From positions 3,100,001 to 3,164,000 of the forward strand of contig OX597839.1 in the NCBI GenBank assembly GCA_951406725.2: 64,000 nucleotides of DNA, in the 5' to 3' direction. This document shows, one piece after another, positions 21,765-24,199 of the stretch (its first letter is position 1; every line of letters begins with the position of its first letter). A program made the translations under genes and the position numbers. The DNA comes from Octopus vulgaris. Taxonomy: Eukaryota. Below the pieces are notes generated by a model, which was given only the letters and a program-made list of their open reading frames with translations, was not told the DNA's origin and made no database searches.

Positions 21765-21766
<2 letters not shown>
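20489..21766 (+). mobile_element. 5'-truncated Penelope-like element inserted in (TA)n
   Basis: GIY-YIG, pyrimidine-rich and about 110-bp triplicated UTR (21150-21470), terminus with HHR-like motif 21630-21667, TA tracts on both sides. Confidence 0.82.
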
Positions 21767-21804
<38 letters not shown>

Positions 21805-21999
21805 TAATTCTCTAAAAGGGATATAGACAGTAACTGCTCGATAACATAAGGGACTAAAGCCATCTGAATATGGCTAGGGACAGGGCAGGGTGGTGGGGGT
21901 GTTACTGTTGCATTTAGCCCCAGGCGAACATCGACGTCACCAGAAAGGCTCGACACCGTCACGGTGCCCTTAACCTGCAAAGGGAGGTAATTCCCCGAT

Positions 22000-22073
22000 G
22001 AAGCGGAAACCACACACGGACCATGGTTTCAAGGTGTATTGCCTATCATCGGCGTGTGGTAGGCCTCCGCTTC
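22000..22073 (-). ncRNA. Type I hammerhead ribozyme (CCGAUGA core)
   Basis: Reverse complement of 22489-22562. Confidence 0.75.
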
Positions 22074-22488
22074 CTCGACGAATTCTCACTCTGCAGGATT
22101 TTCTTATATAGATTTTCAAGCAAAATACATTTGCTGATTTCGAAAATCTGTTCGAAAGCAATAATAATTCTCTAAAAGGGATATAGACAGTAACTGCTCG
22201 ATAACATAAGGGACTAAAGCCATCTGAATATGGCTAGGGACAGGGCAGGGTGGTGGGGGTGTTACTGTTGCATTTAGCCCCAGGCGAACATCGACGTCAA
22301 CACCCCCACCACCCTGCCCTGTCCCTAGCCATATTCAGATGGCTTTAGTCCCTTATGTTATCGAGCAGTTACTGTCTATATCCCTTTTAGAGGAATTATT
22401 ATTGCTTTCGAACAGATTTTCGAAATCAGCAAATGTATTTTGCTTGAAAATCTATATAGAAAATCCTGCAGAGTGAGAATTCGTCGAG

Positions 22489-22562
22489 GAAGCGGAGGCC
22501 TACCACACGCCGATGATAGGCAATACACCTTGAAACCATGGTCCGTGTGTGGTTTCCGCTTC
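22489..22562 (+). ncRNA. Type I hammerhead ribozyme (CCGAUGA core); repeated at 22849-22922, 23209-23282 and 23569-23642
   Basis: cacacg CCGATGA t-agg caataca cct-t GAAAC catg GTC^ cgtgtg; distal stem I gaagcgga/tccgcttc. Confidence 0.78.
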
Positions 22563-23794
22563 ATCGGGGAATTACCTCCCTTTGCAGGTTAAGGGCACCG
22601 TGACGGTGTCGAGCCTTTCTGGTGACGTCGATGTTCGCCTGGGGCTAAATGCAACAGTAACACCCCCACCACCCTGCCCTGTCCCTAGCCATATTCAGAT
22701 GGCTTTAGTCCCTTATGTTATCGAGCAGTTACTGTCTATATCCCTTTTAGAGAATTATTATTGCTTTCGAACAGATTTTCGAAATCAGCAAATGTATTTT
22801 GCTTGAAAATCTATATAAGAAAATCCTGCAGAGTGAGAATTCGTCGAGGAAGCGGAGGCCTACCACACGCCGATGATAGGCAATACACCTTGAAACCATG
22901 GTCCGTGTGTGGTTTCCGCTTCATCGGGGAATTACCTCCCTTTGCAGGTTAAGGGCACCGTGACGGTGTCGAGCCTTTCTGGTGACGTCGATGTTCGCCT
23001 GGGGCTAAATGCAACAGTAACACCCCCACCACCCTGCCCTGTCCCTAGCCATATTCAGATGGCTTTAGTCCCTTATGTTATCGAGCAGTTACTGTCTATA
23101 TCCCTTTTAGAGAATTATTATTGCTTTCGAACAGATTTTCGAAATCAGCAAATGTATTTTGCTTGAAAATCTATATAAGAAAATCCTGCAGAGTGAGAAT
23201 TCGTCGAGGAAGCGGAGGCCTACCACACGCCGATGATAGGCAATACACCTTGAAACCATGGTCCGTGTGTGGTTTCCGCTTCATCGGGGAATTACCTCCC
23301 TTTGCAGGTTAAGGGCACCGTGACGGTGTCGAGCCTTTCTGGTGACGTCGATGTTCGCCTGGGGCTAAATGCAACAGTAACACCCCCACCACCCTGCCCT
23401 GTCCCTAGCCATATTCAGATGGCTTTAGTCCCTTATGTTATCGAGCAGTTACTGTCTATATCCCTTTTAGAGAATTATTATTGCTTTCGAACAGATTTTC
23501 GAAATCAGCAAATGTATTTTGCTTGAAAATCTATATAAGAAAATCCTGCAGAGTGAGAATTCGTCGAGGAAGCGGAGGCCTACCACACGCCGATGATAGG
23601 CAATACACCTTGAAACCATGGTCCGTGTGTGGTTTCCGCTTCATCGGGGAATTACCTCCCTTTGCAGGTTAAGGGCACCGTGACGGTGTCGAGCCTTTCT
23701 GGTGACGTCGATGTTCGCCTGGGGCTAAATGCAACAGTAACACCCCCACCACCCTGCCCTGTCCCTAGCCATATTCAGATGGCTTTAGTCCCTT

Positions 23795-23831
<37 letters not shown>

Positions 23832-23832
<1 letters not shown>

Positions 23833-24152
23833 AGGGCGCGTGGCTTAGTGGTTAGGGCATTCGGCTCATGATCGTAAGCTTGTGAGTTCGATTCCCGGCG
23901 ACGCGTTGTGTCCTTGAGCAAGACACTTTATTTCACGTTGCTCCAGTCCACTCAGCTGGCAAAAATGAGTTGTACTTGTATTTCAAAGGGTCAGCCTTGT
24001 CACTCTCTGTGTCACGCTGATTATCCCCGAGAACTACGTTAAGGGTACACGTGTCTGTGGAATGCTCAGCCATTTGCACGTTAATTTCACGAGCAAGCTG
24101 TTCCGTTGATCGTATCAGCTGGGACCCTCGTCGTCGTAACCGGCGGAGTCTT
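23832..24152 (+). mobile_element. tRNA-derived SINE, head B + tail X
   Basis: A box tggcttagtgg, B box gttcgattcc, ccttgagcaagacactt core. Confidence 0.9.
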
Positions 24153-24199
24153 TAAACTATATATATATATATATATATATCTTCGCTACTATTTCTTTG

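Follow-up and report, generated by a model that had tools for sequence, protein, structure and literature searches.

Metazoan non-LTR retrozymes, with units of, for example, 350-390 bp in the mussel Mytilus and 330/350 bp in the axolotl, are dispersed multimers of a non-coding unit of 150-450 bp with a GC content below 50%, one type I hammerhead ribozyme (HHR) per unit and a short stem III, and they are associated with duplications of more than 4 bp, a highly paired predicted circle and co-resident Penelope-like elements (PLEs) (Cervera and de la Pena 2020, PMC7229834). All of these traits recur in the repeat family that we describe here from Octopus vulgaris, starting from one locus within a 64,000-nt stretch of genomic DNA (the window), and the U.U at the base of stem II is common to the window ribozyme and HHR_Amex2 (PMC7229834). 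On the other hand, the earlier study describes head-to-tail repeats only, whereas the octopus insertions are mostly two-armed, with ends at unit positions 62 and 106 and (TA)n beside them; the youngest core here is CCGAUGA, unlike that of the retrozymes described there; and RNA circles were demonstrated in that work, while here the circle is a prediction (PMC7229834). Which enzyme mobilises retrozymes, and whether the circle serves as its template, is stated to be open in the Discussion of the same paper (PMC7229834). A link with PLEs has been proposed (PMC7229834, PMC7761336), and no conserved motif points to an autonomous partner of retrozymes (PMC7761336). A preprint reaches the same view, treating retrozymes as non-autonomous PLE sequences that either arise from PLEs or are mobilised by them (bioRxiv 10.64898/2026.07.22.740005). 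Its basis is co-occurrence and pLTR similarity in vertebrates, as opposed to insertion anatomy in the present work, and its accessible portions make no mention of a tail or target site and use the word 'inverted' only in a reference. Searches of the open literature returned no cephalopod retrozyme, no member of this family and no tail or inversion signatures of retrozymes.

Insertions of PLEs typically comprise partial tandems, an inverted, 5'-truncated copy and a tail of 30-40 bp at one end, and (TA)n is the preferred target of some PLE clades (Craig et al. 2021, PMC8557442). When the anole PLE protein was purified and assayed in vitro, it nicked AT-rich targets on both strands and extended each of them, and its reverse transcription began at two positions within the RNA, one on either side of the tail; it used uncut RNA, and HHR mutants had no effect on insertion (Frangieh et al. 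2024, PMC11167929). The octopus family resembles such EN+ PLEs in its partial tandems with an inverted, 5'-truncated copy, its tail at one end, its AT-rich or (TA)n targets and what appear to be two internal reverse transcriptase (RT) start sites (PMC8557442, PMC11167929). It differs from them in that it has no ORF, a tail of 43-44 rather than 30-40 nt, a full HHR with stem III instead of a minimal one and no sequence similarity to the PLEs sampled, and in that both of its arms may run for many rounds. Besides, it recalls the Chlamys elements such as MRC1, which are non-autonomous, non-coding PLE parasites with multicopy head-to-tail insertions; unlike the window family, however, MRC1-type elements are similar to autonomous partners at their 3' ends, and canonical HHRs are lacking from the clade (PMC8557442). 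In our view, the locus is a single insertion from a young family of dispersed 360-nt hammerhead repeats that are non-coding. The family is likely an animal non-LTR retrozyme, copied twice at once by a PLE protein from a probably circular RNA, and we give this explanation a probability of roughly 0.7.

Layout of the locus

The preliminary description had read the locus as one head-to-tail array of about 5.6 near-identical copies of a 360-bp unit, bounded by (TA)n. Exact alignment returned the same size (~5.55 copies, 499 + 1501 nt) and the same borders, both outer ends of the array adjoining (TA)n (21766-21800 on the left, 23800-23829 on the right), but not a single orientation. Instead, the order is (TA)n, an inverted arm of 1.39 units (21801-22299, minus strand), a direct arm of 4.17 units (22299-23799, plus strand) and (TA)n, with the arms joined back-to-back at 22299-22300 through one shared base. 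TRF reports the 360-bp repeat only at 22299-23799 (4.2 copies), missing 21801-22299 because that arm is the reverse complement of the same 360-bp unit in 1.39 copies. The plus-strand units were indeed near-identical: those within 22660-23739 are three copies without a difference, and the first plus unit departs from them by a 1-nt insertion near 22392 and a 1-nt deletion near 22458.

Throughout, unit positions (U) are counted from 23020, and 23020-23379 (plus strand) serves as the reference unit U. It measures 360 nt at 47% GC, its longest ATG-started frame has 50 codons, and it is without the ORF for RT plus GIY-YIG that marks an autonomous PLE. The predicted hammerhead cut lies after U244. 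The inverted arm extends from an outer end at ~U103 (the '106' priming class) to an inner end at ~U324, and the outer end of the direct arm is at ~U60 (the '62' priming class). The array ends thus lie away from the HHR cut, and with U103 and U60 the window copy is of the common two-armed kind. Between the two fixed insertion ends lies a 44-nt 'tail' (U63-U106; 23082-23125, plus strand) that is present in every full unit. It is this two-armed inverted layout, with fixed ends at ~U62 and ~U106, that is the main feature missing from the preliminary description.

The neighbourhood of the locus is itself rich in repeats. A 5'-truncated copy of a young PLE termed P5 (20489-21765, plus strand) ends within the very (TA)n that received the retrozyme, and a SINE-type tRNA-like repeat (23830-24156, plus strand) directly follows the right (TA)n and ends in another (TA)n. 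The latter has a weak Rfam tRNA match at 23836-23905 (E 0.59), while ARAGORN found no tRNA within the window. Since the arms are inverted, a transcript entering 21801-23799 from either side would form a hairpin of ~460-500 bp, which would leave the sense hammerheads of the longer arm unpaired and might be a substrate for RNA editing or small-RNA pathways.

The hammerhead ribozyme and its natural variants

Every part of the ribozyme that had been named beforehand was found. Each full unit contains stem I (CACACG/CGTGTG), the core CCGATGA, stem II (T-AGG-CAATACA-CCT-T), GAAA, the palindromic ACCATGGT and GTC. In the direct arm, type I hammerheads lie at 22504-22549, 22864-22909, 23224-23269 and 23584-23629 (all plus strand), and their cuts are predicted after 22543, 22903, 23263 and 23623, as they had been from the sequence before. 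In the first of them, stem I (22504-22509 with 22544-22549) encloses the core (22510-22516) and stem II (22517-22531), followed by GAAA and the palindromic stem III (22535-22542). The inverted arm holds a further type I hammerhead at 22013-22058 (minus strand), with a predicted cut after 22019 in the minus sense. The core is non-canonical in having C at position 4 (U4C) and a U.U at the base of stem II. A U4C change lowers hammerhead activity considerably in vitro, yet it was tolerated in a viroid (PMC3088659). The predicted fold of the 360-nt circle is stable (z = -5.5 against 60 dinucleotide shuffles), and the catalytic fold lies 7.4 kcal/mol above the minimum free energy (MFE) of the circle.

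A search with the Rfam hammerhead models, which the preliminary description had put forward as a check, matched none of them, neither in 6 kb at E ≤ 1 nor in 141 nt at E ≤ 10; the miRNA and snoRNA matches that Rfam did return stayed below gathering scores and arise from the inverted junction and from microsatellites. Given this negative outcome, the hammerhead was tested by comparison of natural sequences. Genome-wide, the 28-nt cut-site motif has 1358 exact copies (control 0). Across 14 natural sequences from three families (A, B and C), 94% of the cells of the HHR alignment are paired, as compared with 19-54% in slid controls, and 6 of the 15 HHR pairs have changed on both sides; the shuffle control of this covariation yields no probability, because the 14 sequences are few and related. 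The core pair 3-8 occurs as C-G, U-G or U-A, including the compensatory change from C3-G8 to U3-A8. Stem III is palindromic throughout (ACCAUGGU, ACCUAGGU, ACCGGU and ACUCGAGU), and the persistence of this palindrome fits with putative cleavage as a dimer.

The same comparison traces a series of cores. Older copies of the window family have UUGAUGA, UUGACGA or UUGAUAA; the sister family B, likewise of 360 nt, has UUGACAA or UUGAUAA (314 matches to a 30-nt motif); and the older family C has the canonical CUGAUGA (5979 candidates, 40 of them scored). Loci L162-L186 represent family B (U3-A8 core) and L237-L246 family C, and further relatives lie near L260 and L265. Judging from these alignments, the HHR is kept with compensatory changes in two older sister families, though Rfam misses it. 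We take the type I hammerhead to be real and self-cutting to be likely. In a Xenopus study, 8 of 9 predicted retrozyme dimers showed no cleavage. Three TTTT runs in the unit make Pol III transcription of multimers doubtful.

Of four runs that are not on record as RNA and were examined as assembled contigs, three (X1, X5 and X14) contain a contig of 390 nt that is self-closing with a period of 360 nt. As a genomic tandem gives a self-closing contig as well as a circle does, such contigs carry no evidence on expression, strand or ends. The contig from X14, which is labelled as another organism, has 6 differences from the unit over 23020-23379, and 5 of these 6 are common older variants in the octopus genome, including one at the free N7 core position. 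The family seems to be shared with a related organism.

Paired insertion ends and Penelope-like elements across the genome

The genome searched is a microsatellite-rich 2.8-Gb assembly in 227 contigs. The unit finds 728 candidates there, of which the 40 scored lie on many contigs with identities of up to 100%, and 80 loci picked by end motif have a median identity of 98.1% to U (minimum 91.4%). The family is therefore young, with subfamilies present. Exact motifs of an end plus TATA number 441 for the 106 end and 526 for the 62 end (controls 0), so that there are at least 526 dispersed, young insertions, with arm lengths ranging from 21 to 5304 nt. The dispersed arrays of variable copy number that the preliminary description had expected hence exist, and its view of a young, dispersed retrozyme gains support from the genome-wide copies, their high identity and the HHR covariation.

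Most of these insertions have two arms that point outwards from a central junction. This form, with ends near U62 and U106, already prevailed among the first 40 loci, for which unit sequence was the only criterion of choice. Of the neighbouring ends less than 10 kb apart, 49 of 51 are outward 62/106 pairs and the other two are on the same strand; this count used 80 of the 441 and 100 of the 526 ends, all within the same stretch (C1 to ~70 Mb of C3). Altogether, 120 loci were analysed, two of which were cut by the fetch and dropped. Among the 118 complete loci, 98 are two-armed and 20 one-armed, or 58 of 78 two-armed once the 40 loci picked as 62/106 pairs are left out, since these would make a test of end pairing circular. 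The 58 remaining two-armed loci comprise 50 with 62/106 ends, one with 62/62, one with 106/106 and six with a broken end (62/106 versus same-class pairs: 50 vs 2, p = 3e-13). The lengths of the two arms of a locus correlate (rho 0.63, n = 64; 0.45 for all 90). A TA run adjoins 60 of 68 primed ends at loci chosen by unit sequence only, against a background of ~3% of random window 20-mers that score as TA under a similar rule. Target duplications of 12-15 bp were read at L031, L054 and L152; inside pure (TA)n, as in the window, a duplication is unreadable. In family B, the same two ends recur 43 nt apart (25 loci, several of which are the same element), and L172 and L178 have duplications of ~13 bp when read by eye. 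No LTR-like layout occurs in the 120 loci.

Inside the loci, by contrast with their fixed outer ends, the arms meet at any phase. All 94 simple junctions differ, and no locus repeats the junction of another. Exact microhomology of at least 3 nt is present at 9 of the 94, no clear excess over the ~5% expected by chance (p = 0.056), with 24 more inexact cases. One junction (L059:3053-3290) contains ~150 bp whose source is the flanking DNA ~340 bp outside the element, the result of a template switch during integration; that this insert might be a piece of the partner PLE was rejected, given that it copies DNA ~340 bp away in the same flank. Separately, recurrent multi-base changes in a short palindrome near U290-301 (L067, L040, L050, L054) resemble errors of template switching at a hairpin.

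PLEs with the same signature reside in this genome. A search for GIY-YIG gave 6136 candidates, 150 of which were scored, and autonomous PLEs with RT, a CX2-5CXXC motif and GIY-YIG were found within (TA)n. One group, the young P1 (L217-L232), comprises 16 loci with intact 781-aa frames, mostly 98-99.8% identical, in a unit of ~4.7 kb, and its zinc motif is of the Neptune/Nematis type. The two P1 ends, both in (TA)n, are separated by 38 nt, and in L222 each arm bears one of them. A second element, P2 (L234:1800-4990), is two-armed with a tail of ~30 nt, and its hammerhead-like motif shares both oddities of the window ribozyme, having CCGAAGA (a CCGAnGA core) and, at the base of stem II, a U.U. 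P5, the left neighbour in the window, has a 4.48-kb unit (1025 candidates), a minimal hammerhead-like motif near its end and, in L256, an open frame of 1092 aa that contains RT and matches GIY-YIG weakly. None of the 12 P5 copies fetched, which were found by a query ending at the short end, has an inverted arm, so that P5 is disfavoured as the partner. Among 50 + 12 PLE loci, none resembles the unit in sequence, and the 44-nt tail occurs in none of the sampled PLEs. A tail like that of family A beside the PLE of L234 was considered as the pLTR of that element and rejected, as it belongs to a separate copy of the older family C.

From the two-armed layout with fixed ends, we infer that the likely machinery is a Penelope-like RT/endonuclease priming twice. 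The family would count as a retrozyme by its unit size, GC content, type I hammerhead, dispersal and long duplications (PMC7229834), and by its ends it appears to work like a non-autonomous PLE.

The template and a proposed mechanism

From the two-armed layout with fixed ends it is clear that the ribozyme cut is not where insertion begins. The cut was also considered as a point of run-off, with the one-armed L052 and L069 ending at U246, but only 4 of 204 inner ends lie there, without a pile-up and no more than at six other positions. Besides, 122 of 180 arms extend past one or more HHR cuts (at most 15, in L096), with a single indel in 314 crossings. Since arms cross the cuts without scars, a linear monomer is excluded as template and was rejected.

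A circular monomer and an uncut multimer leave different traces at positions that were copied in several rounds. In 124 of 143 cases, a common variant is shared by every copy of its locus; of the rare variants, 6 are in every copy, 117 in one copy and 7 in some. Rare variants carried by all copies include those of L133 (8/8) and L138 (4/4), across both arms. A change of one unit that appears in every round of both arms needs a monomer bottleneck or conversion, which favours the circle. Partial variants shared by both arms are found at four loci. Those of L045 and L113 coincide with the fold-back register of the two arms, pointing to conversion or fold-back copying; that of L067, in round 8 of both arms, fits both templates; and that of L064, in the first round of both arms only, fits a linear multimer. 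Provided that a PLE mobilises the family, we consider it quite probable from these variants that the template was a circular monomer rather than an uncut multimer, and rolling reverse transcription of the circle, as proposed in the preliminary description, would be the favoured reading.

The main competitor, which we think unlikely, retains the double priming by a PLE and has as its template, in place of the circle, a linear multimer that was transcribed from an existing array and left uncut. The hammerhead would then be weak or incidental, and the element a non-autonomous PLE rather than a circular-RNA replicon. The U4C core and a catalytic fold that is not the MFE would fit this, as would the insertion of unprocessed RNA by the anole PLE irrespective of HHR mutations (PMC11167929), and a variant confined to round 1 of both arms (L064) or to round 8 of both (L067) is what a multimer would leave. 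Young, homogeneous source arrays would also yield uniform daughters. However, the source transcripts would have to retain as many as 15 ribozymes uncut (L096), and rare variants shared by all rounds (6) exceed the clear round-matched case (1) despite 117 rare changes in single copies. The change in L067 is of the hairpin-error type and fits the fold-back register as well, no junction is repeated between loci, and the HHR has been kept by compensatory change in three families, all of which speak against an uncut multimer.

Far less probable is a minisatellite-like history in which monomers or short copies insert and the arrays grow locally by unequal crossing-over or slippage. This route has been proposed for vertebrate retrozymes (bioRxiv 10.64898/2026.07.22.740005), and within single loci (L038, L108), a few variants do reappear at intervals of 360 or 720 nt. 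Yet it leaves unexplained the obligatory 62/106 pairing, the inner ends at any phase and the correlated arm lengths, as well as loci such as L068, in which all units are identical to the commonest form of the family; local growth may nevertheless act afterwards, as local conversion. Hardly credible at all is the idea that an ordinary LINE mobilises the family by twin priming of the L1 type, or that the array is an artefact of assembly: twin priming does give 5' inversions, but only one 3' end is then fixed and the second site is primed at random, whereas both octopus ends are fixed, poly(A) and a 3' terminal repeat are lacking and the anatomy is common to hundreds of independent loci.

Copying of a probably circular RNA by a PLE protein, our preferred explanation, would proceed as follows. 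Transcription may run through a genomic array, and the hammerheads of the transcript would cut it, probably with the aid of base pairing between the palindromic stems III of two units. Ligation would close the resulting 360-nt monomer into a circle. As the ends and duplications strongly suggest, the GIY-YIG endonuclease of a PLE would then nick both strands of a (TA)n or AT-rich target ~12-15 bp apart, and each nick would, again with strong indications, prime reverse transcription inside the RNA, one at ~U62 and one at ~U106. Both polymerases may circle the template for related lengths, from less than 100 nt to ~15 rounds, before the two cDNAs would be joined at their 3' ends, with a new junction each time, and filled in to give the outward arms. 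In its most specific form, the arrays would be the record of a PLE protein dimer that primes both strands on one ribozyme-made circle, 44 nt apart and in step, a version that we put forward tentatively and at slightly less than even odds.

In summary, this is likely a new family of animal non-LTR retrozymes, and its insertions are mechanism-level genomic evidence for mobilisation by PLEs. As the family is young and numerous, it offers unusually direct evidence on a question previously argued from co-occurrence or similarity; with two fixed start sites and one arm for each, the mechanism can be read from the ends, as in vitro for the PLE protein. It also provides a naturally occurring U4C hammerhead whose core changes can be followed as a series, and intact PLE proteins encoded in the same genome. 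The model predicts that such a protein starts at U62 and U106, one per target strand, with nicks 12-15 bp apart in (TA)n. If true, priming of both strands in step on one circle would settle how animal retrozymes integrate and would explain the tail and the inversion of PLEs by one mechanism, and every two-armed copy would give sense ribozyme RNA together with a long hairpin, whichever the direction of transcription.
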